Assembly (NCBI GenBank): GCA_965178125.1
Contig: OZ237736.1
Span: 62,001 to 126,000, forward strand
Source of the DNA: Bilabrum cf. latius
Taxonomy: Eukaryota
Reading direction: 5' to 3'
DNA length: 64,000 nucleotides
Made by a program: the position numbers and the translations under genes. The notes under the pieces were generated by a model that was given only the letters and a program-made list of their open reading frames with translations, was not told where the DNA came from and ran no database searches. Position 1 is the stretch's first letter. The number at the start of each line of letters is the position of its first letter. Of this stretch, positions 2 to 64,000 are shown in pieces.

Positions 2-2485
2 TCCCCCGAGCCCGAGCAACAGCGGCAACAGGAGGCTGCTGCGGGCGGCAGAACAAAGAAGAGGCAGCGCTCGGCCGCGAAAGGGGTCCGCGGAATTGCG
101 CTCACTGCATCGGAGGAAGACTTTGTGAGCACATCGTTGGCTGGCCTCAGATCTCTGCTGCGGAGGCCCCAGGGCCAGGTGGATGTGCCTAGGCTGTCAG
201 AAGCAGACCCATCGGGTGGTGCAGGCGATGCCGAGCCTGGCGACGGCAAAGGCAACGGCAGCGGTGGGGCGATGCATGCGGTCGCGGGTGGTCACGAGTA
301 GGAGGAGGAAGAAGACGAGGATGCTGTCATGTTTCCGGCACTCTTGCATACCTATCGGTTAGCCCCTGCACGCGGCACCACCACGATGCAGGAGGATATG
401 ACGGCGGGGGAGGCCGGTCGGCTGAGCGCGGGCAAGCTTGTGGTGCAAGGTATCGTGCGGGCCAACCCGGCCCTCTTGGCCGCATTGCAAGGGGCAGAAG
501 TAGAGGGCGCCAACCCAAAGCAGTTCCCCATGGTGGTCCCTCCGCGTCCCTGGGCTGGGGTGAGGGAGGGCGGGTACCTGCGCCTCAAAGTGCCCATCGT
601 GCGCCCCAAGCTCGGCAGCAGGTCCTCGCTGGGAGTGGCAGAGATGGCCGACATGCCGCAGGTGTATGATGCGCTTAACGTGCTGGGCGCGCAGGCCTGG
701 CGGGTGAATCCATTCGTGCATGAAACCATGCGCAGAGCCTGGGAAGGAGGCGGCGGGCTGGCGGACCTGCCTCCGAGGGCAGACCTTGAGCTGCCTGAGC
801 CACCCTCTCCACCTTGTGGCGATTCGGATGCTTCGGAAGATGTCGCCGAGGCATTCAAGGCAGCCAACCAGAAGTGGAGGAGGCAGCTAGGCAGGGTCAA
901 GAGGTGGAATAGCAACCGGCACAGCCTCCGCTGCGACCTCACTCTCAAACTCGCGCAGGCCAAGGCGATGGAGTCGGACGCGTTTTGGTTCCCCTACAAC
1001 ATGGACTTCAGGGGTCGCGTGTATCCAGTGCCGCCGCATCTCAACCACATGGGCTCCGACATTTGCCGCGGACTGGTCCAGTTCGCGAGACCCAAGCAGC
1101 TCGGGGACCGGGGCCTCTACTGGCTCAAGGTGCAGCTCAGCAACCTCATGGGCAACGACAAAGCACCGCTGGACGAGCGGGCGCAGTACGCAGAGGACAA
1201 CCTGGCCAGCGCCATGGACTCCGCGGATCGCCCATTGGATGGGAATGGCTGGTGGCTCGAGGCCGACAGCCCATGGCAGGCCCTTGCAGCGTGCCAAGAG
1301 CTGACTCAAGCGATGCGCCTACACGATCCGACGCAACACAGCTGCCCGCTCCCGGTCCACTAGGACGGCTCCTGCAACGGCTTGCAGCATTACGCCGCGC
1401 TTGGGAGAGACTACGACGGCGCTGTTGCTGTCAACTTGGTCGACGCGGATCGACCGCAGGACGTGTACTCACGGGTGCTCGATCTCGTTATTAAGCGCAT
1501 TGAGAAAGATTCCCATGCTGCCGCTAGTGCTGCCGATAGAACGGCCATGGCGAGGTCCGGTCAAGGTGGCTTTGCTGCTCCAGTGGCAGATGCAGTTGCA
1601 GTGTATGAAGAAGCCAACCGGATCGAGTCGAGTGGCAGCATTAAGCAGGCTTAGAAAGTCCGCAGTGGCATCATCGATGAGTCGACCAACCCAATGCAGC
1701 TCGGAAGCTCAGATTAGCAATGGAAATTCGACAGGGCATGTGCCAAGTTTGTTCGAGGACGTGTCGTCCGGAAAACCATCAAATAGACTGTCATGACCAG
1801 CGTATATGGTGTGACGTTCATTGGAGCTCGGGAGCAGATTCGCAATAGGCTAAGAGAAATGGACTGGTCTTCATACGGAGACGTGGATACAACTGATAAA
1901 CTTGTCTCCGATTCCAGCGCTTATCTGGCTAGAATAACTTTGGAGTGTTTAGGAGAAATGTTCAGCGCAGCAGATTCTATCAAAGACTGGTTGACTACAA
2001 CGGCGCAAACTGTCGCTGCTGTACAGCAGCCAATGACTTGGATCACTCCGTTAGGTTTGCCTGTCGTTCAGCCCTACCGAAGGTCGGAAACAATGACCGT
2101 AAAGACAGCTCTCCAGGATCTCATTATTGCGTCAGAGTAGGATGACTTGCCAGTTTCTGCAAGAAAGCAAGGCACCGCATTTCCACCGAACTATGTGCAT
2201 TCTTTGGATTCAACGCACATGATGATGACAGCACTAGATTGTAATCGAAGGCTAGGTATTGACTTTGCAGCAGTTCATGATAGTTATTGGACTCATGCAG
2301 GCGATATTGATGCAATGAATGCGAGCTTGCGGGAACAATTTGTCAACATGTACAAACGCCCGCTGCTTGAGCGACTGCATTAGTCTCTGAAAGTCCGATT
2401 CCCAAGTTTGCCAATTCGGGACCTTCCTGACAGAGGCGATTTTAATATTGATGAAGTTAAGGCATCGACCTATTTTTTTAGTTGA
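2..2485 (+). CDS. POLRMT: T7/T3-like single-subunit (mitochondrial) RNA polymerase, 5'-truncated by window edge; read with TAG=Gln
   Basis: Track ORFs 329, 1382, 1793 and 2147 share one frame and are separated only by TAG. Motifs: [11 protein letters not shown](TAG)[15 protein letters not shown](TAG)[27 protein letters not shown]-terminal YFFS then TGA at 2483-2485. Confidence 0.96.
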
Positions 2486-15077: not shown

Positions 15078-16508
15078 GGCACACTTGGGGCGTACAGAGC
15101 TTGCGCGTTGTGCTCGAATCTATCCGTGGATTCGCCAACTCCACGTGTGCCACAGTGACGACGATGGCTTCGAGGTCGGGCTCTATATAGTAGAAATAGA
15201 GTTTACTTATATAAAAACTACACACATTTTGGCGGATAACATAAGAGGTCAATATTAACCACTTCACAACATCTTAAGCCGTAGTCCTTCATAATGTCCT
15301 TCACTTGAACATAATAATTTAATAGCTATTTATTCATATATCTACCTAATTTAATACCTTCGCGCCGTTAATGTCTATCTGTTAGACCTTTACTTTACTT
15401 AATCTGTTGAGTGAATCCCTAGCCTAAGTCTTAGGATATGCCCGCCCGAAATTGCGGAAATATATAGTCATTTAAGAATATATGTTCGCAATTCTGGGCG
15501 CGTAGGTGTATTGAGTTTTATATTATGATTTGGTTTTAAGTATCAATTGACATTTACCACTTTAGAAAATAACTAAATAAATACTTAAAGAGATTGACAG
15601 AAGTATTAAAGTCTTTTTAATACTTCCAATGAAAAATTTAAATTAATAAATAAAACTAAACTAATATATCAACTTAATTTATCTCTTTTTTTATTACTTG
15701 TCAATCTATACTTAAATAATTGAATATTTAAATATAACTAGAAGGAGATATTAATCACTTTATAAAGTCTTTTATATGTCATCTCTTCAAAACTTCAAAT
15801 ATAAGGGTATCCCCTTAAAAATACATCCTTTAATCTATCGCCCGAAATTGCGGTAATATTATAGCTATTCAAGATATATTTCCGCAATTCTGGGCGCGTA
15901 GGTGTATTGATTTTTATTTTTCATAATTCTTTAAATATGTTAAAGTCCTTTGTTTGAGTATATGATATAAAGGAATACAAAGCGGGATAACTTAAAAATG
16001 ATAAATGTTTTGACGATGACTTTAAAATGACTCAATGAACTGGTTTATGTCAAGTGTATTACTTTGAAATGATTAATCACTAGATTAAATGGAAAATATA
16101 GGATAATTAAATATGGTATAGTATAATACTAGCGCCCGAAATTGCGGTAATATATTAGGATATTAAGATATATTGTCGCAATTCTGGGCGCGTAGGTGTA
16201 TTGAGTTTTATATTTTGTTAATTTTGACATAGTTATCTTATAGAGGTGTAATTTTGTAATAAAGATATTTCTAGTATGTGCTATATTAAATGTCCAGAAA
16301 TGACGGCCCGAAATTGCGGAAATATATTAGGATATTAAGAGATATTGTCGCAATTCTGGGCGCGTAGGTGTCTTCAATAATTAATAATCAACTACTTCTT
16401 TAGTTTGATTAATTTTTTTGACTTACCGTTCATTTTATTGACCACTTAACGGGATATCACAAAAAGACTTAACCACTTGACGAGATATTTTAAAATAACT
16501 AATAATAA

Positions 16509-16582
16509 ATATGACCGCCCCAAATTGTATCTCCAGATATGACCGCCCCAAATTGTATCTCCAGATATGACCGCCCCAAATT
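16509..16582 (+). repeat. 28-bp tandem repeat (~2.7 copies) of the palindrome left arm
   Basis: ATATGACCGCCCCAAATTGTATCTCCAG twice, then a third partial copy running into a full palindrome. Confidence 0.9.
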
Positions 16583-16733
16583 GCGGAAATATATAAGTAT
16601 CAAGAAAATTATGTTTGCAATTCTGGGCGCTCACCCGTATTCAATTTTACATATTCACTAACTCATACCACTTATTTTAAGTCATTTTCTAGTTTTAAAA
16701 ACTTAAAGATTTATCTAGTATATTACTATAGTA

Positions 16734-16943
16734 ATGCCAGATATTAAAGATGTATTAAAATAGGTTCAAGACATTATGGAAGATTATCAAAGACTCAAGG
16801 AATAGGAGACCAAAAAGAAGGAAGCTATTAAAAAAGCTAAATAGAAATATTACCAAAAGAATCAAGAGAAATGGAAGGGGTACTATTAGAAGAGAAAACA
16901 GGTTAAGGATGAACCAGATACAGAAGGATTAAATAAGACTTAA
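16734..16943 (+). CDS. Small basic hypothetical protein (virophage A)
   Basis: ATG...TAA with four in-frame TAG; KYYQKNQEKW resembles EYYKTNKDKW of B 43024-43326. Confidence 0.6.
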
Positions 16944-16975
16944 AAATATATTTTATTATTATAGTATTATTAATA

Positions 16976-17188
16976 ATGGATTTAATAGATACCAAATCAA
17001 ATAATCAAGTTATCAATAAACCAATACATCAATTACAAGACTTACCAATAGAGTTTCAAGAGACTATAAGTTATTTACTAATCGGGAAATCCCCAGCAGA
17101 AATTGAAAAATTTAAAAATACTCTAGTTGTGCGCGAAAATCCATCTCAATCCTTTAAGCCAAAATAGTGCGTCTAGAAAATGACTTAA
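16976..17188 (+). CDS. Small hypothetical protein (virophage A)
   Basis: Track ORF extended through two TAG to TAA. Confidence 0.5.
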
Positions 17189-17218
17189 AAAATTATCTTT
17201 AGTATAGTATATACTAGA

Positions 17219-20017
17219 ATGACGACCGAACACATATCTAACCCTGTTTATTTCTCAATAGCTCACAACTCTAAACAACCACTTATTAAGTCTTGGTAGA
17301 ATTTGGAATCTACTAAACTTATCACCAGAAAGTCAAATCTTAATGTTGGATTACTAACTGGAAGACGTGCAGGTTTCTTTGTCCTTGACTTAGATTGTGA
17401 AAAAGAGAAAAATAAAACTGAATTTCAAAATGGTAAGTTTATTGCGGAATATGGTAGTGTTGATAAGTTTATTCAAGAGATGAATACTTACACTGTCAAG
17501 TCTCCCAATGGATATCATTTGTATTTTAAGTATGAAGAAGAGTTTAGTAAGAGGTCAGTAAATAGAAAAGAACATATAGATGTGATCACAAATGATAGCT
17601 TTATCATGTGTCCTCCTAGCTCTATCAACGGTAAGAAATACGAACTAATACAAAAGACATCCGTGAAAAGAATACCAACTGACGTCAAGATGTTCATACT
17701 ACAAAATATCTATTCACCACAACTTACAGCTGAAGACTACCGTTATATGATTAAACCCGAAGAATACAAACAATACTTATATCAATTAGGTAAAGAGTAT
17801 TATTCTAATTCATATAACTGGCATCTAGTTTGTAGAGCTACAAGTTATATCGCTAAATACTTAAATCCAGTAGATGGTAATAAGGTATATGATATGTTTG
17901 ATGAATGGAGCAAACAAGACGTAGAAAGCTATTAGTCGACTAAGAACAAGATAATTTTTACTCGATTATTAGAAAATTCCACTTTTCAATGTGTTGAATG
18001 GTTCTTTAATTAGTTAGATAGTGAAAAGAAACGACTTAGCCTATATTATCGATACAAGATATTCAAGAATAAAGTAGTCAAGAAAGTCAATTAGAAGATT
18101 GACCGTAGATATTTGACTGCTGACGACAAAGGTCGTTATATTAAATTCTTTAAGAAAGGTATCAACTATGCCGTTAAGTCGGGGGCTGGTTCTGGAAAGA
18201 CAACTGCTGCTAATGATTTATTTAATAGAGTAGATGACAGCTTTTTATCAGTTGTAAGTCGTATTTTATTAGGTAAGCAATAGATGCGTAGTCTTCCAAA
18301 ATCAACTAAATTCTATCAAGACCATAAATACAAATAGGGTGATAGTATTGTTATTACTCCTGAAAGTATTGTTAGTCTTAGCAATTATAACTTTAAGGAT
18401 TATATTGTCTTTTTAGATGAGTTTAATAGTATCTTAGAACACTGTTTAAGTTCTACGACTTTATATGGTAGGCGACCAATGAGTTTCATTACTCTTATTC
18501 GTGCTCTTACCACTTGTAAGTAGTTCATAGTAGCAGATGCTGACTTATCTCAAGATGCTCTATATTTCTTAGAATTATTAAAATTAGATTATCAATATAT
18601 TAGGAATGACAGAAACAGGTTCAAGGGCACCAAAACTGTATTTGTTAATGACGAACAGACTTTTAGAGATGAGTTAATGAAACACAAGAAATTTATGCTT
18701 GCTAGTGATAGTAAGACAAAAGCTGATATAATCAATGAGTTAATTAGTCTTAAAATTATAGATAACGAGAAAGATAAGAAATTAAATAAAATCTTAATAC
18801 TTACAGCAGAAAGCGAAGACAAAGACTATGATATGGATATGTTTGATATCATTATCTTCTCACCTAAAGTCATTTACGGGATAGATAGCACTATGACTAG
18901 ACCAGTCTTTGGTTATTTCAAAGGTCATACTATCACACCTCCCCAAATGGTTCAATAGCTTAACAGATGTAGAAACCCATCACATATCACTATATTTTTT
19001 GATTACTAGAAAGGACGATCTAGCACATATGAAAGTCTTTCACAAGTTAAATCTTTTATGGCTACCTCTTTAAAAGACTACGAAGAATTAGTTAAATTTG
19101 TCAGTGATACATATCCCGACTTCAACGAGGTAGAAGTAGAAGACAAAGTAGAAGAAGAAATGAGCAAAGTTAAAATCATATTCAAGAAACTATATCGTAA
19201 TTATCTTTACAAGGTAGATTGTTATAAGACAAACCCTAAATTACATATGATCAAGTAGTTAATTGATACCGGTTATGACGTGTCTTATGATTTATCTGTT
19301 AAGATCACCAGATGTAAGGATAAAGAAATCAAAGATACCATTAAAGAAAAACAACTTGAAAATTTTGATATTAATTGTCTTAATGTCAAGAAGATCAATA
19401 AATACTTAGACTTAGATGAAGGTGATATTGACAAATACAAAGAGTACTTTATTAATAAAGGTAAGTTATCTAATTTATTTAATTTCAATAAATTCTTTAG
19501 ACAAGATGATAAACACTTACTTGTGAAAGCAATTAATAAAGGCGAGTTTGATATTATCAATGCTAAGTCTAGTTCTAGAAAATTAGTCTTACTTAATAAG
19601 ATGATTGATACTTTGGGTCTTAAAAGAACTAATCTTGATTATAATATCAAAAAGAAAGTATTAGATCAAGACTTAACAGATGAATATAGGACAGTGTATG
19701 ACTGCCAAAGAAGAAGTAAAGTTGACCTATCCACTGATAAAGGTCTCTATTACGAAATACTTAAAGTATATAAATCAATGTTTGGGAAAGACATATTTAT
19801 GACTTGTAAGAAAAAGAAAATTAACTATGATGTAGAATTTAATTAGGATATTATTGATGAGATGGAATATATCTGGTCTAACAAGAAAAAGACTCGTGAA
19901 GTAGATATATTTGTTGATGATGAAGAGGTTCAATTACCCGATGAAGAGATAGAGGTTGACTTGGACCCCGCTTTATTTGTTGATGAGGATAATGATCCAC
20001 TAGAACAACAAAATTAA
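17219..20017 (+). CDS. Primase-polymerase (PrimPol) fused to origin-binding-protein-like (UL9-type) SF2 helicase, ~932 aa
   Basis: N-terminal NVGLLTG...VLDLD...TVKSPNGYHLYF; Walker A KSGAGSGKTT; Walker B FLDEFNS; FSPKVIYGID; QMVQ(TAG)LNRCR. One frame with TAG=Gln. Confidence 0.88.
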
Positions 20018-20079
20018 ATTATGACTTATTAATAAAAAACTTAATAAGACTTAATAATACATACCTTATATAAAATGAC

Positions 20080-20430
20080 TTAGTGGTCTCTTTTTGTCTT
20101 TTTAATTTTTTCTTCTCTCTTCTTCCTTTCACATTCACTTCTTTCAACACGATACATCAGCTCCTAGACGTGTTTCACTTGCTCTTCATATTCTAACTGT
20201 TCCAATGTACTTTCGAGTTTCTTGATAATATTGTCGAATTTAAAACTAAAGACATTCTAACGATAACCATCACCTTTGTCTTTTGGTTTCATCCATACAT
20301 ATTTATCAAAGTGATTCTCAATACTTTTACCTATACTACTGACTACATCATCGACACCTACACCTTTAACAAGACATTCATCTATAAAATTTTGAGATAG
20401 TTCAATTTTGATATCTTCTTTATCTGACAT
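20080..20430 (-). CDS. Hypothetical protein (cassette 1), N-terminus paralogous to 20984-21373
   Basis: MSDKEDIKIELSQ; ATG preceded by TATATATAG motif; TAA stop after two TAG. Confidence 0.65.
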
Positions 20431-20600
20431 TACTATATATATAGTGGATATTTTTTGGCGAAAGTAATAAACTAGTCTTAAGATATGACCGCCCGAAATT
20501 GCGGTAATATTATAGCTATTTAAGATATATTTCCGCAATTCTGGGCGCGTAGGTGTATTGAATTTTTAAATTTATTTGAATATAATATTTTTTACCTCTT

Positions 20601-20921
20601 GGTGCGTTGTGGTCTTGGTCTAGTGATATCGTGATTGTTTCACAAAGTCAAGGTCGTGGGTTCGATTCCCACCACTGACATCGCCGTAAGTCGTTCTGTA
20701 AGTCATTTTCATGACAAAGCACACGTCTTGCAAGTCTTTGAAGGGAGTTTGGATACTGTAGAAGTAGTCGTAAGTGGTTGTAGCAGACTTAGTCGTAAGA
20801 CTTAATAGGGATAGCGGTCCATGGTTGACATTCGCATCTCCGCTACAACAATGACTTACGAATGACTTCGCCAAGTAGTCAAACCATCGGTATAATTACT
20901 AGCTCAAAGAAATTTTTTTTT
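20601..20921 (+). ncRNA. Putative Pol III transcript: degenerate tRNA-like head plus structured 3' body
   Basis: A-box-like TGGTCTAGTGA 20616-20626; perfect T-arm GTGGG-TTCGATT-CCCAC 20656-20672; long-range stems; T9 run at 20913-20921; GC-richer than flanks. Confidence 0.55.
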
Positions 20922-20983
20922 ATTACATAGATATGACTTAATATTAATAACTTTAATATTAAGACTTTATTATTAAGACTTAA

Positions 20984-21373
20984 TTATGACATATGTTTTT
21001 TATATTCTTTAACACTCCTATCCATAGCATCCAGAATCATTTGTCTGTGATCTTCTTCAGTTAATGGTCTTCTTTTCCTGTTGCTATCACTTAACTTACA
21101 CTGAACGTATCCCATAATCGCGTCTTGTCTTTCATCAGTTAAGTCTTTAAGTAATTCAAAAACTTGATTTGCTTTATAGTCGGTCGTATATGAGAACTCC
21201 ATCATTCCATCTTTTGGAGTCGGTTGACCTATTTGTCTTAACACTATCTCATTTCCTTCTATCTTACTTGTGATTTTTCCACATAACATCTTACCTATTC
21301 CATCCCAATCAAGGTTTACACTTGATACAAGACTTTGAGAAAACGATATTTTTAAATCTACTTTATCTGACAT
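20984..21373 (-). CDS. Hypothetical protein (cassette 2)
   Basis: Intact 129-aa ORF MSDKVDLKISFSQ with the shared upstream block. Confidence 0.7.
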   Translation of the reverse strand: MSDKVDLKISFSQSLVSSVNLDWDGIGKMLCGKITSKIEGNEIVLRQIGQPTPKDGMMEFSYTTDYKANQVFELLKDLTDERQDAIMGYVQCKLSDSNRKRRPLTEEDHRQMILDAMDRSVKEYKKHMS

Positions 21374-21410
21374 TACTATATATATAGTGGATATTTTTCG
21401 GCGTAATATT
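21374..21410 (-). promoter_or_regulatory. Recurrent upstream motif CGCC(A/G)AAAAATATCCACTATATATATAGT-ATG (putative viral promoter)
   Basis: Near-identical upstream of ATGs at 20430, 21373 and 21938; variants upstream of 32571, 33507 and 36078. Confidence 0.6.
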
Positions 21411-21515
21411 TAAACTAGTCTTTAGATATGACCGCCCGAAATTGCGGTAATATTATAGCTATTCAAGATATATTTCCGCAATTCTGGGCGCGTACCCGTA
21501 TTGAGTTTTTAATAA

Positions 21516-21938
21516 TTAATCCATATTAGGGGGTTTCTTATACAAGATAGCAGGGTCGCATCCATTTGTTGGAAAGTCTGCTGGATACCACCCCCATACT
21601 ACTTTATAAATATCTGTGCTCGTGTCGTGTTCAACTTTATGATAAAAAATACAATCATAATGAATACCATTCTAATTACGCACCTCTTGCTCCATCTCTT
21701 CAATTATCTATCCTACCTTTAACTTTGTAAAGCCTCCTTCACTTACATATGTCTTTATATGACCTCTATTATTTACTTGTATCTAGTCTTTATCTATTAC
21801 TATTTCTTCTGGGTCTCCTTCAAATTCATCATCTAAGTAAACCTTTTGAGATTTAAGTGTTGGGTCTTCTCTATGTGGTAAGAATAAGAATGAATACTCC
21901 ATATAAAGTAAGTCTTCACACGGTGATACTGCTGCCAT
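21516..21938 (-). CDS. Hypothetical protein (cassette 3), 140 aa
   Basis: MAAVSPCEDLLY...KKPPNMD-TAA with three TAG; same upstream block; absent from the track. Confidence 0.65.
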
Positions 21939-22125
21939 AACTATATATATAGTGGATATTTTTTGGCGTAATATTTAAACTAGTCTTAAGGTATGACCGC
22001 CCCAAATTGCGGTAATATTATAGCTATTTAAGATATATTTCTGCAATTCTGGGCGCGTACCCGTATTGAGTTTTTAAATTTAGTCAATATTTATAACTTT
22101 TAAATATTAATTAATAATTTACGAC

Positions 22126-24012
22126 TCACATATTGAGCTACTTTCTAAGTTTCATAAGTTGAGCCTTAGTTAATTTCTTCCCTCCACTGGTCAAAAGACT
22201 TCCACCACTAGTTAAAAGACCTGCTCCAACACGTTCAGCTAAGTCATTCACTTCATCGGGTAAGTATTCACTTACTGCTTGTCTTGCTTTACGAAGAGCT
22301 GGTTTCACTTTATCAAATTTAGCTTTAGCTTTCTTTCCAAAGTCTACCACTTTACGTCCTAAGTCTTTAGCTTTGTTAAAGGCTCTCTTAAAGAATTGCA
22401 TCACTTTACGACGTCTTCCACCTAATACGTTCTTAGAGTAGTTCATATTAGAAAATGTATAATTAGAAGGTTTAGCCACTTTCTCAGGGTCAACAGAAGC
22501 ACTATCTTCACGCCATTCAATAGCGGCACCTCTAGTATTCACGATAATCTTGTCATAGGCACAGAATAATTGAGCTTTATATCCTTGAGACATAGCAGCG
22601 GTTGGGGGTTCGTCATAGGCTACTTGAACACGAATACTAATAGGGTCAGCACTGTTGCTTTGAATAGTTTCAGGAGTATTTAAATCACTAAGTCTAAATA
22701 AGAGCCAGCCATTAGATCCGTATACTTTAGAAGCACCTCCTACAGTTACATCTAAGTTAGTAAAAGAAGCATACTCACTATTTGATCCATTTCTTTCACT
22801 AAGTCTAAAGATATCGTCTTGTGTAAGTTCTCCTAAAATAGAACCCTAAGACCTAAGTTGTACTTTAATATTGTTAATGGCAAGTGTTCTATGAGGTGTA
22901 CCACTAGCTTCTCCATATTGAGAATCAACTAAGCACACAGCAAACCAAGAAGGGCAAGTCTAAAGTTGATAATTATTAAAAGTATGGACACCTTTAGTAG
23001 TGATAGGATTATCAAGTTTAGGCTCTTCATGTAGTTCAAAGTCAACAGAGTTGTAGAATATTTGTTTAGGTACTTTCTTCAAGAAGTTAAGATGAGTATT
23101 ATAAGTAAAGACATCAAAATGGATCTAGCAATCGGATAAAGCAAAAGCATAGTCTCCATTCCAATCACTTGAAGTATTAAACATCTTATCAATTAAGTTA
23201 TTTCTCATTTGTAAATTAACATTTAATTGTGGATGATCAACAAAAGGTCTAGCATTACCACCCATCATATATTGGAAAGGACGTGCAAGAAGTGCTTCAG
23301 AGATTTCAATATGTAATTTGACATAGTCTTGAGTTGGTGTTACATTATTATTAGGTATTGGAGTATTAGCATCCACTTTTTCAAGTGTTGCGCGGTAATT
23401 CTTACCAGGACCGCGAGCTTCCATAATACTATCATCATTTACACCCCATTGAAGGACAGACTTAGCAAGACCATTTGCGGCAGTATTAAATTCCCAAGTG
23501 TTATCAGCCTAAAAGACAGGACTTATTTGTGCTAGAGTGGCACGGTCAAGACTTCTAGCTATTAAATTGACTAATTGATAAGGTGATGAACTACGAGATA
23601 AGTCTCCCATTTTAACTGTGGAACTTGTGATCATTGAATTTACCATAAATGTAGAAGGGGCTACCTTATTGACGATATCAGTTTGAGCTACTGCTCCATT
23701 GTTCTAACTATCATAGATGTATACGTCAAATGAAACTCTTAGACGGGGATTACTGTCAGTCATTCCTTGATTTGATGGCACTACGAAAGTATAATTACTT
23801 CTAAATGCATTAGTTGCGCTAGAGTTACCACCATCTGGTTCGTAGTGGTTTTGAAACTTGGAAGAGTATCCAAGGGTAGTTCCGAGAGTAATAGCTTGAC
23901 TATCACCCACAAAGTTGAGTTTTTCGTCAGCTATTTGAGTTACTGGTAGTTCTGAGACGTCATCTACGACTTTGCTTTGTGCTGCTACAGGTACATTATC
24001 CATATCAGACAT
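22126..24012 (-). CDS. Virophage major capsid protein, ~628 aa
   Basis: Three track ORFs in one frame. PSWFAVC...LAINNIKVQL...GELTQDDIFRLSERNGS resembles the virophage MCP C-terminal jelly roll; GG-containing basic tail; next to penton. Confidence 0.88.
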
Positions 24013-24054
24013 TATAAATATATTAAGACTAAAGATATTTATTTATTTTTAACT

Positions 24055-24981
24055 TTAAGTTATTAACTTTTTACTTTTAAATAGAGCTTTTATATTAAGT
24101 CCTTGTCCAAAAGTAAAGGGTATTTCGTATAAGTTTCCAAAAGTATCTCTAAAATACGGTACTATACTATAACTATTAAATGCTGATCTATAGAACTATT
24201 GCCATCTATGATTTCCTCCACTACTAAAGTTTATTTTAATAAAACTTGTTCCTGTTGTATTGTCTATCTTGAAATCACTTAAGATATTTTCACTTTGTAT
24301 CTCTGTACTAGATGTACTTTTATATGATGGTGTAAATTCTGGAAGTATTGGAAGAGATGGACTAATAATTTGAATATACTCCATAGTAGGAAACTAATCT
24401 AAGGTAGAAGCACTCTATTCATTGTATCCATCTAAAAGATTTATATAAGTATCACTTTTAATGTCTTTACCTTCATCATCATATTCAAATGTCTCAAATA
24501 TAGAGAATAAAGGAAAGTTAAAACTTAAAGTCCACGCACTTGTAAAAGCCGCTAAACGGGTGAAACTAAAAGTTTTAGTCTTACCGTGATATTCAAATAC
24601 TATACTATCAGTTGGAATACTAGCATCTCCACATAAATCACTAAGAGTATTATTAAATTCATTAGATAAGGTCTTAAGACTATAATATAACGACTTGGTT
24701 AAGACAATATTACGAGTGTAAGTAGTTCCATCACTCTTCTTCACAAACGACATCTTATAAATTGACTAATTATCGCTATTCTTTACTTCTTTACTTGCTA
24801 CAAATAAAGGAATACGACATTTAAGAGTCCATCGGTCAAGTGATAATAAGTAGTTTTGTGAATTTGTCAAGATATTACCTTGACGCTGTTCATGTATTGA
24901 TACTGGTCTATTAGTATTAATAGATGTTATAGTATCCTATGAGTTAATATAAAAGATATCTGGTTCTTGAATCTCTACCAT
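24055..24981 (-). CDS. Virophage minor capsid protein (penton), ~308 aa
   Basis: HEQRQGNILTNSQNYLLSLDRWTL..IPLF N-terminus; adjacent to MCP; homolog at 50895-51848. Confidence 0.82.
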
Positions 24982-25341
24982 TCTATAACATTTATCAAGA
25001 AAATAAGTCTTGTCTAATGCCCCAAATTGCGGTAATATTATAGCTATTTAAGATATATTTCCGCAATTCTGGGCGCGTACCCGTATTGACTTTTTAAAAA
25101 AGTTTTTATTAATTATTTGACTCATTGAAAAAATCCAATATTCCGAAATTTTAAAAATTTAGTATCTTAAGATATAGTATAATACCAGCGCCCCAAATTG
25201 CGATAATATATTAGGATATTAAGATATATTTCCGCAATTCTGGGCGCTTACCCGTATTCATTTTTATATTTTAGTCTTTTTAATATGGCCACCTTATAGA
25301 TATCAATTTTCAATATCTAAAAATTTATGGTATATGTCATA

Positions 25342-25890
25342 TTAACTAATTATCAAAGTAATAAGTTCATCATTATCTAGTCCTCCTCCATACTTTTTAA
25401 AAGCCTTCTTTAATTGACTATTAAACTAATCATTCGTTAAATTATGAAAGAGAAGTCTGAGCACACTCCACCGACCGCATGTGGCAGAGTTATTTGATAT
25501 TAATTGATTCTTTTGATTTGAATAGTCAACATTAATACCAGCATCTAATACGTGATCTATTAGAAGACTACTTCTATCATATAGCTTCTATGGGTCTATG
25601 ACTCCTCCTACGACTGGAATATGAGTATCAGGTAATTGACCATAACTATCCCAAAAATAAAGAGTATTCTTTGATTTATTAAATATGACCGCAGTATAAT
25701 GACCGCTCATTGTTGCTCCTTCTACTAAGTTAGGATAATAAAGGACAAATAAAGGATTTTCATCTAGAAATTGTCTGATGTTATTAGTATCACTTATTTC
25801 TTCATACATTATAACTGGTATATGCTACTTTGTAAATGTAAAGTATAGTCTTTGTACCTCTTCAGGACTTAATGCAGTGGTTATATCCAT
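25342..25890 (-). CDS. Adenain/Ulp1-like cysteine maturation protease, 182 aa
   Basis: GHY, FWDSYG and NQ...ATCGRW (His-Asp-Gln-Cys catalytic set). Confidence 0.9.
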
Positions 25891-25909
25891 ATACTTAATA
25901 CTAAGAAAA

Positions 25910-26977
25910 TTAATATACGAACATCTATTTAGGACAAGTGATAAAATTATAAGTCTTATTAATACATAGCCATCTATTACCTTCTCCAAACAATTTATAA
26001 ACACGATTTATAAGACTTGCATCAAATCCTAAATATGCTTTCATTAAATATTTGCTAAATTTCCATAGATTTCTCTTAAATAAAATAATATTATGACTTT
26101 CCATGACTATTGACCTAGTATTCGCATAATCATTCGTTAAATGACTTATAACTATCATATTTGTTGAGCTATGTCTTCCAACTTCACCTATACGCTTAAT
26201 TAAGAATAACGCTCTCTACTTTTTATCACCGTTTAAGGCTTCATAATCATCAAATACCACCACAGAAGGACCCTATTTTGCCCATTCTTCATACAATGGA
26301 GTAGTGGTAAATGATGCCTTTGTCTTGTCTTTACTTGTTGGTTTCATTCTTTCTATCTCTATCTCTCTTTTAATTAATTCATGAGGTTCTAATGACTTCT
26401 TTTCCTACCTAAAGAATATCTTTTCTTCTTTGTATTTCCTCATTAAGTCATCATAACTATCGTTTCTATCTACTGCTACTAATTTATCAATATCAATAAA
26501 ATTACCATATTTTAAATAAGTTGGATTTGTTTCCTGTACTGGTGTAATGACTAAAACCCTCTTCTTTGGAATGAACATATGATAATACTTGAGTAAAGAC
26601 TTAGCAATATAAGACTTACCAGCACCAGCCTAACCACTTAAATAGTGTATTTGTCTTTTGGTCTCATCATCAAAGAATGGGACTATTTCAAACTAACTCT
26701 TATCATCTATTCTTAACTCGTTAGTCTTTCTAACTAGTTTTTTATTTCCATTCACTAGCTTACACATCTCTTCACGTAATGCTTTTTTATTCTTCTCATA
26801 TTTAATTGCTCTCTTTCCATAATACTCTTCAAGTAAATCATCACTTATATCTTCTGGAGTTATGACTTTTTCCCCTACATCTTCACTAAAAAAGACGCTT
26901 TTGTTCCTCTTCTTGTGCTTGTATTCTCTTAAAGCAACTAAATGACTATTTGGTATTTCATCGTATGATAATGACAT
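25910..26977 (-). CDS. A32/FtsK-HerA-like genome packaging ATPase, 355 aa
   Basis: Walker A SG(TAG)AGAGKS, Walker B VVFDDYE, GRH, IVISH, TRSIVMESH. Confidence 0.9.
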
Positions 26978-27122
26978 TATATACTATATGTTAATATTTA
27001 TTATTTTTCTAATAATTAGTGGGTTCAAAAGGTATATTGTGAGAAGTAGCCATTTCAAATATTCATTTTAGAGTGCACAGTCTTAAGAATATGATTAAAA
27101 TATCATATAAATATATAGAATT

Positions 27123-27644
27123 ATGGATCACAAACTTCTAATTTCAAAAAGATATATTAAATCATTTTATAAGTACTCATGTAAAGTTAATTAGTACTAT
27201 AAGAAAGCAGAAGAGTAGCGTAATATGATGACAACTGATAGAGTAGATTGCTATACTAATTATATAACTTGTCTTCTAATTGCTCGTAAGTATAGAGAAT
27301 GTATTATCAATTGCAGTAAAAAGTACTATTATGATATGGACTTTACGTTAAATGATAACGGATATGTATCGTCTTCTTTTGATCACTTAAAAACATTCAA
27401 CTTTGACTATGCTAATTCAATGAAAATAAATGAATGTATAGAACAATTTAAACAATCCGTTGAGTGGGAAAGGTTATTTAAAAAAGACTTTTTTCAAATG
27501 TAGTTAATTTATGAATATCTAAAATTTTTCAGACTTAAGTGCTATTTACATGACATACGACCAGATAATCCCCTCCATCCGACAGAAAAAGTTAATAAAC
27601 TTAACGAAGAAGACATTGACGAGCTATTTTATAGTGACTGGTGA
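27123..27644 (+). CDS. Hypothetical protein (virophage A)
   Basis: ATG 27123 to TGA 27642-27644 with TAG read-through. Confidence 0.6.
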
Positions 27645-27838
27645 GACGACCGCCCCAAATTGCGGTAATATTATAGCTATTTAAGATATATTTCTGCAAT
27701 TCTGGGCGCGTAGGCTGTTAGAGGTTTTACATTTTCGGGTCAATCTAATGAAAATCTCACAATATAGGGCGCCCCAAATTGCGGAAATATATAAGTATCA
27801 AGAAAATTATGTCTGCAATTCTGGGCGTTTAGGTGTAT

Positions 27839-28657
27839 TCAATTATGTGAAACTAATTTAACGACCCTTTTATTGAGCTAGTCTTCTAAATATTTAATTA
27901 TAATACTTACATCTTTACTATTGAACGTATTAAAGTATTGATATACTGGTTTAATAAGTCCTAATTTACGTACATCATTCTTAAGTCTATCAATAACTCT
28001 ATTTTTTAATTTAAATGGAACTGTTGGAAGTAATAAACTTTTTAATCTTGTAATAGTCAAGTAAAGAAAGCCTACATCGGGATTCTTTATAAGTTGTTCA
28101 ATCTCTTCCTGCTTCTTCTTTTGACCTAATTCGTCGTAAATTACATCTAGTCTTTTTAATATCTTGAAATATTTTCGTTCTTTTTGTAAGTCTTTTATGT
28201 CATCTATCATCCTATCAGCTACTTGTTGAGGCTTCATTTTCAATATCTTACCTCCAATATCATATAATATGCTAACCTCTTCAATATATCCAGTATAGAC
28301 CCAACTTTCAACGAATATCATAGGATTATTCTACTATTTTAAAGATTTTAATATTTTAGGTCTATTAGTATCAAGAAATGTATCTAAAGAGACGCCATTA
28401 TCATCATATTCAACGTTATAAATATGTATTAATCTACTCCCTCTTAAGGTCTTTAATTCATTTATAACACTATTGACATCAGACAATTTAACGGGAGAGT
28501 ATAGGTCTATGTCTCCAGCCCAAAGTGAAAGCATATTATGAGTAAATGAATATGAACCATTTAAATAAATATCACTTCTATTTATTTTAAAAGACTTGAA
28601 TATCTTATTATCAAATCGTGAATAATACTTTAGCTACTACTTTGTTAATTTAACCAT
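27839..28657 (-). CDS. Putative Pol-beta-family nucleotidyltransferase-like protein, 272 aa
   Basis: LNGS...AGDIDLY motif (hGS..DxD); syntenic homolog at 53932-54747. Confidence 0.7.
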
Positions 28658-33507: not shown

Positions 33508-33526
33508 TTACCTATATATATAGTGG

Positions 33527-34192
33527 TCATTTTAATAAGATATTTTTAAACTTTGTAAAGTTATCATGAATTTTATCACTATCACCCCAGCACACTTTAG
33601 CATACCATAAGTTGCTGTCATACATATCGGTCTCATCAAAATGAATATGTCCTAATACTCGCTTTCTCATTTTATCAGCGTGTGATTTACCTCTTCTTAA
33701 AGCATCAGGATAAGTCTATGTATTCTTTTTGTTAAAATATACCTTTGTATCATTAATCTCTACACAATAAACATATTCAGGTTTATCACTCACTGTAAGA
33801 TCACTAATATTGATTTTTGGTTTTGGTTTCTCTTCAATGACTTCACTCACTACTTCACTACTTGTATCACTATATGTATCATTCAAATAGTCTTCCTCTT
33901 TATTATCCTCTATGTCTTCGCTATCTAATTCAACATCTTCCAATATAGCCTATTGTCGTTCTAATTGTGGAGGTTTTAACTAGATAGGTTCTATTTTAGA
34001 CGGTTGTCTCACTAAATTTATAGTTGCTATCTCGTCCCCTTCATCATCTATTTCACCCTATAAACTTGAATAATGCTTGTTAATCCATAACATTTTTAAG
34101 TCATCACGAGACCACTTGTACTTTTCACTTAACTTGACTACTCTTTTTAGAAGGTCTTTATTTTTGTATCTTGTTATATTTAACAATTCCAT
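33527..34192 (-). CDS. Hypothetical acidic protein, homolog of 39054-39824
   Basis: One frame with TAG; YCVEINDTKVYF...SNLWYAKV versus YKVSVNGNDVFF...PEFWNSRV in B. Confidence 0.65.
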
Positions 34193-36078: not shown

Positions 36079-36438
36079 ATTTACTATATATATAGTAGAT
36101 ATAAATTTTGGCGTTAATTAAACGATTTTATAACATATTGTCTTCTGTTATTTCTTCTAGTTGTTTATGCTGTAATTGTTCCATTTTTCTTTAATATTTC
36201 TTCTCGTTCTTCTTTACTTTGAAGATTATAAAAAAGAGTCTATGATCCATTTGACATATCCCACTCATTGCCATCAAAACATAATTTAATTTCATCTTTT
36301 AAATTGTCCTCTATAGCTTTTATAGCCTTTTCAATAACTTTATTATTTTTACAAGCTTTTAAAAACTTGGGAGACATTATAATTTTCAAGTCGTACATAT
36401 ATATAAAGACGATATAATATGTTGGCGTAAATTAAACA

Positions 36439-36856: not shown

Positions 36857-37396
36857 CCCCCCCGCTACGGTAATAAATAAATTTATTCCCTTCGGTTAAG
36901 GATGATTAACATCATCAATAGTTCCAGTCCATCAGAGCTAAAGCTCTTCAGTCCGTTCCACTCCTTTTGGAGCTAGTCGCTCCAAAAGTCAAGGTGGTCC
37001 TCTTCATACTGCTACTTCATATAACTGCTTTATCCTTCTAATTATATAAAATCAATTTAATATAAAACTCTATACGATGACCATATCCACAAATTGCGTA
37101 TTAGTATATGTATTATTTAGCAAAACGTGGATGTAGCCCTCTTGTGAAGGTGTTATGGGACTCTAGCCATTTTCTAGCCAAAAGTTCCATCACTTTATGG
37201 GACTCCATTATTCAACCTTCTAAACTACCTTCATTATACCCCCTTATCCTCGCTTATACCTTCACAAATGGAACACACGCGCTACAGCAACTTGCTACAC
37301 TCGTCATCGCAATACCACAAGCGCCACAGTTCAATACACCCCGGAACGATGACGCTGTAGGCCAGCTGATCACTTCACCAGCCTAAAACAATAGAT

Positions 37397-38090
37397 ATGG
37401 ACCGCAAGATTGAGGTAAGAATCCACAGGATAGATAATCAACATATGGAAATTGCTTTGCTGACCGTATCTGTATCTATCGCACCGGTTTTGCTCGCCAA
37501 CGCAGCTCTTCAAGCCCGACCAACGCAAGAAAACGGGAACGGAAGCGCTACTCACCTTCCAGGACACCGTACAAACCGAGAAGAACCCCAAGAAGCTTTT
37601 GAAAGCGCATTCAAGGCTACTAGGGGACATGCACCTCGTTGAGCAAACCGGGAAGTCGCTGGAGAAGGCAATTCGGGAGGCGGTCGGAGCATTGGAACCG
37701 ACAGGCGTCAACTCAAAGGCTCTACTCGCTGTTATCGCTTCAATATTCCCCAAGGGGAGTCTTGACGATACCGATGCTGACTTTGACCGGATTAATGGCG
37801 TGCTGAAGATTCTACATCACGGCAGAGATTACGCGGAGACGAGGCAGACACAGGCGTTCTTGGCACAGAAAATGGCTATCCTCAAGCCATTTCTTCCAGC
37901 ATATGACATCCCATCGCTCGTTGGTGATGTTTTGGAGAAGAACCAGAAGAGGAAGCGCCGCCAAGACTTCAACAAGTAGCTTCTTCTGGAATCTGGCATC
38001 GCCGCACCAGCCAAGCGGTTTCGCGGCAATGAGAATCTCATCCAGGACTATCCCCGGACGGCGGGTTCTTAGCCCAAGATGGAGAAGTGA
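37397..38090 (+). CDS. Hypothetical protein, probably spliced (exons 37397-37414 and 37506-38090)
   Basis: GAG|GTAAGA...GCTGAC...CGCAG|CTC; removing 91 bp joins MDRKIE in frame to the otherwise 5'-open ORF; basic KRKRR patch. Confidence 0.6.
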
Positions 38091-38273
38091 GAAGGTTGAA
38101 CAACCTTTTTTATTATAAATTGTCGTGTTTGTTATTGGTAGGGACACGGCTATATTGGAGTGGCCACGCTGTCGTGTGTAGCAGGGTACGAACCGTGCTT
38201 CCAGCATTGACACGGGTGGAATCCCGCATTGAAGAGCATTTCAATGTTTCATTTGTGGTCTCAGTCAATCCAA

Positions 38274-38741
38274 TCAATCCACACGCATCACCACGTATCC
38301 ATTTTGCTCGCTCGTGCTCCCGTCGTAGCTGTTTAGAAAATGTCCCAGCCCGTCCTCATCTTTACAGGCCTGAATGAGGTCGTCCCAGCGCCCCTAAGCC
38401 ACTATAAATGACTTAAGAAGGGCGCTTAAAGCCTCGCTGTGGTTCGCGTCAGCGGTAGCGGTGCTTATGATATCGGCATCGCAAGGCAGGAAGCGCGAGA
38501 GGAACGCAGGAACGAAGGAAGCAAGCGTCTCTGTAGCGTGGTCGTCCAAACGTTTGTCTGCTTCTTCTTCGGTGATAATCTCATAGGTCTGGATTTCCTC
38601 GCCTAGCTTCACCGTGGCAGTCTCGCCGTCAAAAGATTGAAGAACCCTGTCCCACTCCTCGCCCACTGCTCCAATGTCTTCAATACCAGCAATAAGCGCC
38701 TTCATTACTTCATCATTAACATCTGTAGAAACCCCGGCCAT
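38274..38741 (-). CDS. Hypothetical acidic protein, 155 aa (phage-like YEIITEEEAD...DGLGHFLNSYDG motif)
   Basis: ATG 38741, one TAG, TGA at 38274; GC-richer than rest of B. Confidence 0.7.
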
Positions 38742-39053
38742 TGTTTTATGTGTTTTATGTGTGGTCCAGATAAATTTTGGCGTAGCACAGGTTCCGAAGA
38801 TGAAGATGAGAAGGTGGTAGACGATAGCCGATTCCAGTGGTAGCAGTGAGAAGTTCCAGCACGAGGAAGTGATGAAAATGTAGGGCAGGAGGGTATAAAC
38901 TGACGGATGGAACCGCAAAGGAAGGAGAATTGGATTGAATAATTGAAGCCAGACCCATAACCCTAGCCTATAGGCTAGGGATAACCCCCACATAACCCCC
39001 CCACCTCTAAGCGTTTTTTTAAAACTCAAAAATTATAACTTAGTATTATAGAT

Positions 39054-48280: not shown

Positions 48281-48431
48281 TCTCTATATAATATCTATAT
48301 AATATAATCTTTAAGTCATTTTAAACGCGTTATATTATAAATTAGGGGCTTAAAAATAGACACTATAGATATAAGTGATTATAATAATTAATATTATTAA
48401 AATATTAATTAATTAGACCGGTTAAATAGTT

Positions 48432-48544
48432 CTTTGGAAAGTATGAACCTACTTTGAAAAGTATGAACCAACTTCGGAAAGTATGAACCTACTTTGAAAA
48501 GTGTGAACCAACTTCGAAAAGTATGAACCTACTTTGGAAAGTAT
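48432..48544 (+). repeat. 20-bp tandem repeat, ~5.6 copies
   Basis: CTT(T/C)G(G/A)AAAGTATGAACC(T/A)A units in an AT-rich intergenic gap. Confidence 0.92.
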
Positions 48545-48933
48545 CATTCACAGGTCATATATTTATTTAATATGTATAAATAAATAATAAAATGATTATC
48601 TTGCCTTATATAATTGAATGGGTTTCTTTTCTAATAGACAAACAGCCAAATAATGAAGTACAATGTCATCATCTCTATACTTATTCCTCGTCTATATAAT
48701 ACATTTATAGGTTGAATATTTGAGATATAATAGCTTCTCTCTACTGTCTTTTTTTAATTGATTGGTGATTTCTTTTACCTAATCACTGTTTGTAAAAATT
48801 ACGGTCAAAACTCCATCAATTTCTGTCTGGATATAGACATCGTGTGTAGGCGGTAGATTCTCAATAATTTTATTTAACTTTTCCATTTGATATATATTAG
48901 TTAGTTAATATATATTTAAGTCATTTTAAACGT

Positions 48934-57350: not shown

Positions 57351-58379
57351 TTAGTCTATAGGATAATAATATTTTGTTTTGTATAGATATATATAATGGC
57401 AGAGTTAGTAGCAACAGCAAGCACGGTTGGTGGGGTGTTGGTTCCTCTAGGATATGCGGGATGCTTCCTTTGGAACTTATGTTCCTCACTTGCGAATCGT
57501 AAAAAATTGTGTTTAGTCCTTCCACGAAAAGGAGGTAAAAGTTCACTTAACAAAAGTTTAACGTCTATAGACCCGAATATTCTATTAGTTGATTTAGATG
57601 AAGTCCTTAAAGTTAATGCTGACACCAAACAGGTTTTATACCTAAACGAAGCAGAACGAAGAGGGGACTTATCAACGGCTAAATTATTAAAATTTGAACT
57701 TATGAAAAAAAGTATTGAGTCTGTAAAGAAAAATTGGTTATAGAAAGCAGAACATAGAGCAGTCTTTTTAACAAGTGATTTTGAACTAGCACAAGAAATA
57801 TTCAAAAAATCCAGCATATGCGTAGCTATACCCAGCGATAAACTGTATAGCAAAATCCATAAAGATTTAGATAATGATGATGCCAGAGTGTACGCGCAAC
57901 CTAGTCTCGTTAACAATCAGACATGGCAAGACCTGACAAAGCTGTGCCTGTGCGCGACCCTTGACCGGACTGACCGGGGCTGGGAAGAGCACGTGCACTA
58001 CTCCGCCGAGGAGGAGGGGGTTGGGAGGGTGGGCAAAAATTACCCAATCTCCGCCCCTCTCCTGAACACAGAGAGGGTATGCGCGTCATCGCAAGCAATC
58101 CGTTGGCTTGGTCGCACCTTCCCGGTCGCAACCGCCATCGGAACCCAACGAGACGTTCACGCGCTCCCACTCTGGCATCAACACCGAACCCCATCCGGCG
58201 TTAGGATCATGATGCCAGAGTGTACGCGCAACCTAGTCTCGTTAACAATCAGACATGGCAAGACCTGACAAAGCTGTGCCTGTGCGCGACCCTTGACCGG
58301 ACTGACCGGGGCTGGGAAGAGCACGTGCACTACTCCGCCAAATCTTACCGCCATGTCTTGTACGCTGCGGCTGTGTGGC

Positions 58380-59480: not shown

Positions 59481-59690
59481 TGGACAAGGTGTTCCAGATC
59501 GGCGTGGGACAGTTGACCGGATACACCGCGTCCAGGTGCGTGTATGCCTCCTGTGAGCCGCGGCTCAAAGCGTCCGCAACGACGTTGTCCTCGCCAGGAA
59601 TGTGTTTCACGTGAATCTGCACATCTTGCGTTGTCTGCAGTACGAAGATAGGGCGAAGTAAGGCTGCCATGATGTGGCTCTTGGGTCTGC
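59293..59690 (-). pseudogene. RNase H C-terminal remnant of DIRS/Ngaro pol
   Basis: IHVKHIPGEDNVVADALSRG; gag and RT absent. Confidence 0.8.
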
Positions 59691-60062
59691 CGTAGCGTAT
59701 CAGCTACACGGAAGCAAAAATTACCCAATCTCCGCCCCTCTCCTGAACACAGAGAGGGTATGCGCGTCATCGCAAGCAATCCGTTGGCTTGGTCGCACCT
59801 TCCCGGTCGCAACCGCCATCGGAACCCAACGAGACGTTCACGCGCTCCCACTCTGGCATCAACACCGAACCCCATCCGGCGTTAGGATCAAGATAAGGAT
59901 GTAGCAAGACATTCACGAGCTGAATTTTTGAAAAGTTTTAACCCTAATGAGTATAGCGTGTATAATACGTTTGAAGGGCTTTCATAGATGGTTATGTCAG
60001 TCTATAATATGACCTACAGAGTGTAATTATTTGAATATTATTAAATAATAAATTAATAATAT

Positions 60063-62586: not shown

Positions 62587-63384
62587 TTAATTAAAATTAT
62601 CCTCTATCTCGTCTCGCTCCTCGTTATCCAATACCCAATCTAATCTTGAAGGGTGCCACGCTCTAGAAATTAATTCTTCTTTGATTTTTTTAGTTTGTTC
62701 AATTGTTTCATCTTTCCGCTCTTCTAATGATGGGATTAATGTCGTGGAATAATCAATTCGTTCATCCTTAATTCCATTCTCCAAATGATTAAAACTAAAA
62801 CAATTAGAAAACATACATTCCATATCTACAACATTTGAAACATCCCAGTTATTTAAAGGTTGATTTAGTGAATGGCAATCATAAAACATTCCGCACATAT
62901 CTTTAACATTTGAAACGTTCCAATTATTCAATGGTTGGTTAAATGAATGGCAATCATTAAACATTTCACTCATATCTTCAACATTTGAAACATTCCAATT
63001 ATTCAATGGTTGGTTAAACGAATGACACTCATTAAACATACCGCCCATATCTTCAACATTTGAAACATCCCAGTTATTTAAAGGTTGATTAAACGAATGA
63101 CACCCATAAAACATATCGGTCATATCTTTAACATTTGAAACATCCCATGAATTTATTGGTGATTCAATTATCATATTATCAAATAGGTTTAACATATTCG
63201 TAATAAATGTTGTTACTAATAATTCAGGTTTCAAAAACTACAATGCGTGAAGAAGAAAATCTGTATCTTTAGCTACGTAATATGTTTTACCTTCAAATTT
63301 CACAATATAATTATCTTTTCTAAAATAATATTCTTTTGGTTTTGTAGCTTTCAAGGTTCCATTTTCCCATTTTAAAACTTCCAT
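62587..63384 (-). CDS. DUF285/BspA-like repeat protein
   Basis: ~22-aa repeats FNQPLNNWDVSNVxDMxxMF; C-terminal EELISRAWHPSRL. Confidence 0.88.
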
Positions 63385-63473
63385 TCTGTATATACCTATA
63401 ATAAATATATTATTTAAGCCTTTTTAAACTCACACTATAATATTAAATAATCATTAATATTATTAAAATTCTA

Positions 63474-64000
63474 TTAATTAAAATTATCCTCTATCTCGTC
63501 TCGCTCCTCGTTATCCAATACCCAATCTAATCTTGAAGGGTGCCACGCTTTAGCAATTAATTCCTCTCTATATTTCTTTGTTTTTTTAATGGTTTTATGT
63601 TTTCGTCTTTCTAACAACGGTATCAATGTTGTAGAATAATCAATTCTTATACCCTTAATACCGTTCTCTAAATGATTGAAACTTTCACAATCTTTTAACA
63701 TCTAAAACTTACTCTAGACATTGGAAACATCCCAATTATCCAATGGTTGATTGAAGTTCTAACATCCATTAAACATAGAGGATATATATTCAACGTTAGA
63801 AACATCCCAATTACCCAATGGTTGATTGAATCTTGAACAAGAACCAAACATACCACTCATATCCCTAACATTACTAACATTCCAATCGTTCAATGATTGA
63901 TTGAATTCAGAATGATAGAACATAGACGACATTTTTTCAACCTTAGAAACATCCCAATTATTTAATGGTTGATTGAAGTTCCAACATCCATTAAACATAG
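63474..64000 (-). CDS. Second DUF285/BspA-like repeat protein (5' end beyond window)
   Basis: Same repeats; near-identical C-terminus to 62587-63384. Confidence 0.85.

Follow-up and report, generated by a model that had tools for sequence, protein, structure and literature searches.

An endogenous virophage-like element in the 64-kb stretch of DNA analysed here (the window) carries a unit of 311 bases (20606..20916, + strand) made up of a tRNA-derived head, a body and the first four letters of a T run, its limits being set by contigs from two public sequencing runs, X7 and X8. We tentatively read it as a discrete tRNA-derived unit of the RNA polymerase III (Pol III) type, and as a SINE-like retrocopy that this virophage lineage now carries. 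We favour this reading because the stretch shared with the two contigs runs from start to terminator, because its flanks there are unrelated to those in the window, and because one copy is followed by what resembles an A-rich tail; since the shared letters run from the expected Pol III start to the stop, the unit was probably copied through its RNA.

A virophage-like provirus in a host that seems to read TAG as sense

Host DNA in the window has a GC content of 0.56–0.72 in most 1-kb bins of 1–15 kb. Three stretches have low GC (~0.30), here called elements A (15.1–37.0 kb), B (39–58 kb) and C (60–64 kb), and their genes are open only with TAG as a sense codon; in element A, freeing TAG raises the total of frames of at least 100 codons from 3268 to 7355 codons. 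Translated in this way, element A has genes for a Prim-Pol primase-helicase (E 8.9e-14), a capsid protein whose C-terminal domain is that of Sputnik V20 (E 3.2e-07), an ATPase, a protein resembling cysteine proteases, and an rve integrase that also has a chromodomain. On this gene content we take it to be a virophage-like provirus, bearing out the “virophage A” of a preliminary description of this DNA. The primase-helicase genes of A and B contain 11 and 20 in-frame TAG codons, respectively, and the integrase gene of A contains 12.

Judging from its letters, the host nuclear code also seems to read TAG as an amino acid, with TAA and TGA closing frames. A GC-rich host gene (2..2482, + strand) forms a single open frame with in-frame TAG, five of them within 2..2002, and its product aligns with profile positions 1–373 of 448 in PF00940, the family of phage-type RNA polymerases (E 1.8e-153). 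Only with TAG as a sense codon is this gene, for the host’s phage-type (mitochondrial-like) RNA polymerase, open; two of its TAG codons stand at positions that we take to be glutamine in the motifs of the family, so that TAG is probably read as Gln. The TAG-as-sense reading of all three virophage-like elements is the host’s variant code, and because the host itself reads TAG as sense, the provirus needs no suppressor tRNA of its own.

Between the elements lie GC-rich stretches (37000–39000 and 58000–60000; GC 0.46–0.62), the second with direct repeats (58033–58213 with 59714–59894, and 57874–58007 with 58206–58339, both at 99%). No Pfam match came from the frames scanned in these stretches, which may represent decayed or non-autonomous retroelements; the window yielded no reverse transcriptase. 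In element C, two adjacent genes (62587..64000, − strand) contain coding repeats of 75 bases in tandem (motif NQPLNNWDVSNV...), and a spacer of element B (48412–48564) contains six 20-base tandem repeats.

The unit is an insertion in a spacer of element A

The unit, single-copy in the window, stands out from its surroundings in composition, with a GC content of 0.428 vs 0.297 and 0.134 in its flanks. Among the internal non-coding gaps of at least 120 bases in elements A, B and C, it alone has a 120-base GC maximum above 0.40 (0.467), the other two GC islands above 0.40 lying at the ends of element A, where they touch host DNA. Neither a box B, nor a tRNA-like call, nor a comparable GC island occurs in elements B and C; the conservation in sister elements to which the preliminary description had looked was thus not found, the unit being absent from B and C in the window.

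Paralogous spacers of element A align with the left flank up to ~20594–20601 and with the right flank again from ~20932–20940, the aligned parts being 3 bases apart in the capsid-gene spacer vs ~365 apart at the unit. These spacers align on both sides without the unit, which relative to them is an insertion. Read directly, its borders hold a possible, imperfect target-site duplication, with TTTTTTAC on the left (20588..20595, + strand) and TTTTATTAC on the right (20918..20926, + strand); the match extends over 8–9 bases and is weak, the sequence being of low complexity. Ten filler bases (20596–20605), which resemble 20612–20621, separate TTTTTTAC from the unit, and the window copy has no A-rich tail.

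The genes that bracket the unit (20080..20430 and 20984..21373, both − strand) are paralogues whose products both start MSDK.D.KI..SQ and have no Pfam match; together with gene 21516..21938 they have one repeated module of promoter and hairpin in common (repeat family D3). A conserved, palindromic TATA-like motif containing TATATATA stands immediately ahead of the ATG in − strand genes of element A (sites 20430–20473, 21373–21416, 21938–21981, 33509–33552 and 36081–36124), which from its letters and position looks like a promoter. The spacers of element A also contain a repeat of ~70 bases with a 14-pair hairpin (GCCCGAAATTGCGG ... CCGCAATTCTGGGC), present in 12 copies within 15444–27870 and placed between the stop of one − strand gene and the promoter-like motif of the next. 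B and C lack this repeat, which may be a hairpin at the ends of transcripts. One of the 12 copies (family D1, 20491..20560) lies directly upstream of the unit and outside it.

A tRNA-like head with Pol III-type promoter and terminator anatomy

The head (20606..20680, + strand) is a degenerate tRNA-like sequence. Scored against the sequences that we take as consensus for box A (TRGCNNAGTGG) and box B (GGTTCGANTCC), it contains a box A-like motif with two mismatches, TGGTCTAGTGA (20616..20626, + strand), 43 bases upstream of a box B that matches exactly (20659..20669, + strand) and is the only exact one in the 64 kb. This box B is contained in a perfect T arm, GTGGG / TTCGATT / CCCAC (20656..20672, + strand). 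Between the boxes we read an anticodon-like arm (20632..20650, + strand), in which TGATT (20632–36) and AGTCA (20646–50) form five pairs, one of them G-T, around a 9-base loop, GTTTCACAA. At the far end of the unit is a Pol III terminator-like run of nine T (20913..20921, + strand), of which the first four lie inside the shared unit; it is the only run of at least eight T on the + strand of element A. Exact box B matches arose at a mean of 0.03 per window in 300 block shuffles, and the composite of a box A-like motif, an exact box B and a downstream run of four T arose in none of the 300. The promoter and terminator anatomy is therefore beyond chance.

The remainder of a tRNA fold is poorly represented. 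Read from the sequence, the acceptor strands (20606–12 and 20673–79) form at best five of seven pairs; neither the sequence as read nor the predicted fold gives the head a D stem, and the minimum-energy fold of the unit retains the T arm alone from the head. Letters 20647–50 and 20676–79 can, together with the T arm, form an acceptor/T minihelix, and the D-loop letters and the loop TTTCAC are, as we take it, reminiscent of tRNA-Glu(UUC). The preliminary description had listed A- and B-box-like motifs, a perfect T arm, an imperfect anticodon arm and a poor acceptor/D stem, followed by a body of about 240 nucleotides that ends in nine T and can adopt mutually exclusive folds, and on each of these points the present analysis agrees with it; the start it gave, 20601, is moved to 20606 by the X8 contig.

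ARAGORN reported no tRNA or tmRNA in the 64-kb window and none in 20401–21100 with introns allowed or thresholds relaxed; a call obtained at the laxest setting, -ps80, was an artefact with a 150-base intron. Rfam gave no match at the gathering score. At E ≤10 it picked up only the T arm of the head, which aligned to the T arm of tmRNA at 13.8 bits vs a gathering score of 47 (E 0.002 in a search of 701 bases and E 0.0003 in one of 106 bases), and the 106-base search gave a weak alignment to mascRNA (12.2 bits, E 4). The tRNA family (RF00005) was rejected as an identity on a loop of 9 bases rather than 7, at most five of seven acceptor pairs, no D stem and no call by a tRNA finder. An amber suppressor tRNA was likewise rejected, the loop GTTTCACAA having no CTA and the sole CTA in the head (20620–22) having no flanking stem. 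The unit cannot form a cloverleaf and is neither a tRNA nor a suppressor; the earlier statement that it is no amber suppressor thus holds, and in a host that reads TAG as sense a suppressor would also be unneeded. Membership of the adenovirus VA RNA or the TMER (tRNA-miRNA-encoded RNA) family, raised in the preliminary description, was not upheld: Rfam returned no match at E ≤10, the VA RNA family model included, and there is one unit with no cluster.

The unit occurs with other flanks in public sequencing runs

Eleven public runs, none on record as RNA, were listed for this region: nine carry part of the words sampled from 20561–20983, and seven, from five studies, carry half or more. Four of the 11 (X4, X5, X7 and X8) were compared with 18001–24000.

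Runs X4 and X5 contain the provirus. The depth of the unit is close to that of its flanks (408.7 vs 504 in X4; 17.1 vs 18.6 in X5), so these organisms show no extra identical copies, and the X4 contig is unbroken across the unit from 20532 to 21161. No empty site (~20600 joined to ~20917) is among the five joints listed for the two runs. The unit shows no difference between the window and X4 or X5, with no variant letters listed inside it, and 8 differences were counted over 2447 bases of the primase gene next to it; the identity of the unit is weak evidence, because a stretch of 311 bases would be expected to hold only ~1 difference. In X5, the depth splits on the right-hand side of the T run, with 8.76 for the window arrangement plus other contigs, the unit itself having 17.1. 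From these depths, the unit seems to be present in all variant copies of the provirus in X5, which would make it an established part of the virophage lineage, whatever its origin; such presence would be as natural for a stable part of the virophage as for an old insertion. A further X5 joint, from 20913 to 21506 at depth 4.8, would place the unit beside another gene, and was given no weight because its shorter side has 25 letters, under the 30-letter warning level.

Runs X7 and X8, probably of DNA, belong to other studies and are labelled with other organisms, and each has one short contig on the stretch. The X8 contig matches 20606–20808 without a difference and has 23 unrelated letters before 20606, which were not found in the window at up to three mismatches. 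The X7 contig matches 20658–20916, again without a difference, and continues into 21 unrelated, purine-only, A-rich letters; following directly on the four T, they read as in the tail of a retrocopy. The flanking virophage genes (18001–20600 and 21001–24000) are uncovered in both runs at 80% likeness. The letters shared with X7 and X8 extend from ~10 bases before box A to the first four T. The preliminary description had allowed that the unit might be an inserted SINE with many host copies: the other flanks in X7 and X8 lean towards a mobile, SINE-like unit, and the unit depth in X4 and X5, being that of the flanks, gives no sign of the many copies.

Wider searches returned no further occurrence. 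Exact-match scans with pieces of the unit found none in viral contigs, metagenome contigs or prokaryote genome contigs, and blastn of 20596–20925 against phage records gave no match. For the provirus, no relative was found in viral contigs through the neighbouring 129-residue protein or the capsid protein, and a two-sequence alignment of the ATPase gave 445 pattern matches there, of which none was confirmed.

A repetitive, hairpin-rich body and the alternatives it raises

The 236-base body folds into a hairpin (20686–20731) and a large hairpin domain (20735–20910), and is internally repetitive over 20681..20912 (+ strand), with units such as GTAAGTCRTT and AGTCGTAAG. Two of its pairings exclude each other: 20688–20707 can pair with 20849–20868 (19 pairs, −22.7 kcal/mol), or 20768–20784 with 20842–20866 (16 pairs, −19.4 kcal/mol). 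The partners in the first pairing also amount to inverted ends of ~20 bases, with CGCC just outside them on both sides (20682–85 and 20869–72), as would be expected of a DNA-level cassette, for instance a small inverted-repeat element at 20686–20868 lodged in a short tRNA-like gene. We consider such a cassette very improbable: chance can account for the four-base repeat, the inner arrangement is the same in the X7 and X8 contigs, so that they offer no empty form, and the inverted ends have no other copy in the window.

The fold of the whole unit on the + strand is modestly better than that of shuffled sequences (z −1.98), with 3 of 100 shuffles equally good, and on the − strand it has a z of −4.14, with none of 100 shuffles as good. 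Because the − strand has the better z and the absolute energies are alike on the two strands (−87.2 and −85.2 kcal/mol), folding does not tell the strand.

That the − strand so clearly beats its shuffles would suit a relic with no transcription of its own, that is, a decayed tRNA gene or captured fragment with locally duplicated spacer repeats, serving as an antisense 3′ UTR. Such a relic would be read only within the transcript of the − strand gene 20984..21373, continuing to the hairpin repeat at 20560–20491. The neighbouring genes all lie on the − strand, the body is made of short local repeats, and the hairpin repeat follows the stop by ~13–60 bases in other spacers vs 424 bases here, all of which is in keeping with this idea. 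It nevertheless appears quite improbable to us, in that the letters shared with X7 and X8 end at the predicted Pol III start and the T run and not arbitrarily, a letter-perfect box B and a T run unique in element A are unexpected after decay, and the two strands are about equal in absolute fold energy. A coding reading, by a stop-to-stop frame of 107 codons on the − strand (20572–20895), was rejected, having neither a virophage-type promoter nor a Pfam match.

The motif AAGACTTAAT is common to the body of the unit and to the spacers of element A itself. No significant complementarity to the unit was found elsewhere in the window, where the best matches span 19–42 bases at E 0.02 or worse, and no antisense target was met with there. 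Element A contains the hexamer GACTTA 69 times, both strands counted, vs ~15 expected, and B contains it only six times; in the spacers of element A it appears as ATGACTTA or AAGACTTAAT near gene ends; because GAC-TTA is a sense codon pair (Asp-Leu) in the coding examples checked, this enrichment is not evidence for RNA targeting.

These observations also bear on whether the unit is a virophage gene for an RNA that host Pol III makes from the provirus, similar to a TMER or a VA RNA, with the head as promoter and the body as the active part; the head would perhaps supply a site for RNase P or RNase Z, and the body would be a small-RNA precursor or a protein decoy. The intact anatomy of box A, box B and nine T fits such a gene, as do the depth of the unit, which equals that of the provirus in X4 and X5 (including the apparent structural variants to its right in X5), the GC content of 0.43, the sharing of AAGACTTAAT with the spacers of element A, the possible acceptor/T minihelix with its weak mascRNA alignment and, to a small degree given ~1 expected, the zero differences across the window, X4 and X5. 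We rate this reading as rather unlikely, because the unit also occurs outside the provirus context in X7 and X8, is absent from the other two virophage-like elements and is single rather than clustered; in addition, neither unit pieces nor neighbouring proteins led to relatives in viral contigs, no significant complementarity lies elsewhere in the window, and the + strand fold is only marginally better than shuffles. A more specific proposal is of a Pol III gene kept by the lineage, with RNase P or RNase Z cutting the minihelix, with the body serving as a decoy or small-RNA precursor when giant viruses infect, and with passage between AT-rich viral genomes as an RNA-copied cassette; we hold it to be unlikely.

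Discussion

On the SINE-like reading that we tentatively favour, a small mobile RNA gene would have entered an ordinary intergenic spacer of the provirus and would now be carried by the virophage lineage. In the nucleus, the integrated copy would give rise to an RNA of ~310 bases through the host’s TFIIIC, TFIIIB and Pol III, and no benefit to the virophage would be required. A T-rich target with microhomology to the U tract of the RNA could have produced both the long run of nine T and the TTTTTTAC/TTTTATTAC pair, in what is low-complexity sequence. Of the earlier notion of a Pol III-transcribed regulatory RNA, the Pol III-type anatomy stands, strengthened by shared ends at the start and stop, and the VA or TMER membership and the regulatory or antiviral role are not supported.

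Several observations count against the SINE-like reading. There is no sign of many copies, the unit being single in the window and equal to its flanks in depth in X4 and X5. The window copy has no A-rich tail, an imperfect duplication and 10 unexplained bases before the unit. Its GC content of 0.43 is far below that of the host flanks (0.60–0.72) and nearer to that of a structured RNA of an AT-rich virus, it has AAGACTTAAT in common with the spacers of element A, and no reverse transcriptase is seen in the window. The basis in X7 and X8 is one short contig each, with 21–23 flank letters.

One idea discussed for endogenous virophages is that they protect protists heritably from giant viruses, and a question in the field is whether they express anything while chromosomally silent. 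A Pol III unit needs no viral helper, and so could be the one part of the provirus that is transcribed in an uninfected cell. Were it a viral gene kept by the lineage, virophages would have their first Pol III gene, and the TMERs of herpesviruses a counterpart in protists. Should it be no more than a SINE-like passenger, it would still be a dated marker of the stay of the provirus in the nucleus, and a first case of so small a retrocopy within a virophage.

Ngaro retrotransposons are reportedly nested in Cafeteria EMALEs. Transposable elements nested in endogenous virophages are already on record, a preprint giving 16 MULE insertions in endogenous virophages of Halocafeteria (10.64898/2026.07.28.741278). 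The unit resembles such insertions as a foreign element of different GC inside an integrated virophage, and differs in being small and tRNA-derived, whereas nested MULEs and Ngaro elements are protein-coding or kilobase-sized. The terms tRNA and SINE have no occurrence in the main text of that preprint (10.64898/2026.07.28.741278), whose supplements may list small insertions, or in that of PMC8547959. A literature search found no paper combining ‘endogenous virophage’, ‘SINE’ and ‘tRNA’, and none naming such a unit.

The TMERs of murid herpesvirus 68, which Pol III transcribes and RNase Z cuts into small RNAs, form a cluster of eight, with pairs of hairpins of pre-miRNA size. The likeness lies in a viral genome that encodes a non-chargeable tRNA-like head, Pol III boxes, hairpins and a T run; here, in contrast, the unit is single, its hairpins are one of 46 bases and a domain of ~175 bases, and the setting is a protist host with a virophage. 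Adenovirus VA RNA similarly comes from a viral Pol III gene whose boxes A and B are internal and whose terminator is a T run, but the present unit is about twice as long and, as noted, without an Rfam match at E ≤10. To our knowledge, VA RNA has no tRNA-like T arm, and we know of no PKR-type target of VA RNA in protists.

The unit has in common with tRNA-derived SINEs a head related to tRNA, in which boxes A and B lie, a body that is unrelated, and a length of ~300 bases; like them it is inserted into non-coding DNA and has copies between different flanks, one copy, in X7, being followed by an A-rich stretch. Unlike them, the window copy ends in a T run without an A tail and has a doubtful target duplication, its GC lies far below that of the host with no partner reverse transcriptase seen in the window, and one copy in the window at flank depth in X4 and X5 gives no many-copy family. 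Pol III retropseudogenes of the Y RNA type run from the first base of the transcript to its U tract and then into an A-rich tail, and the X7 contig has the same order, the unit up to its U tract being followed by A-rich letters.
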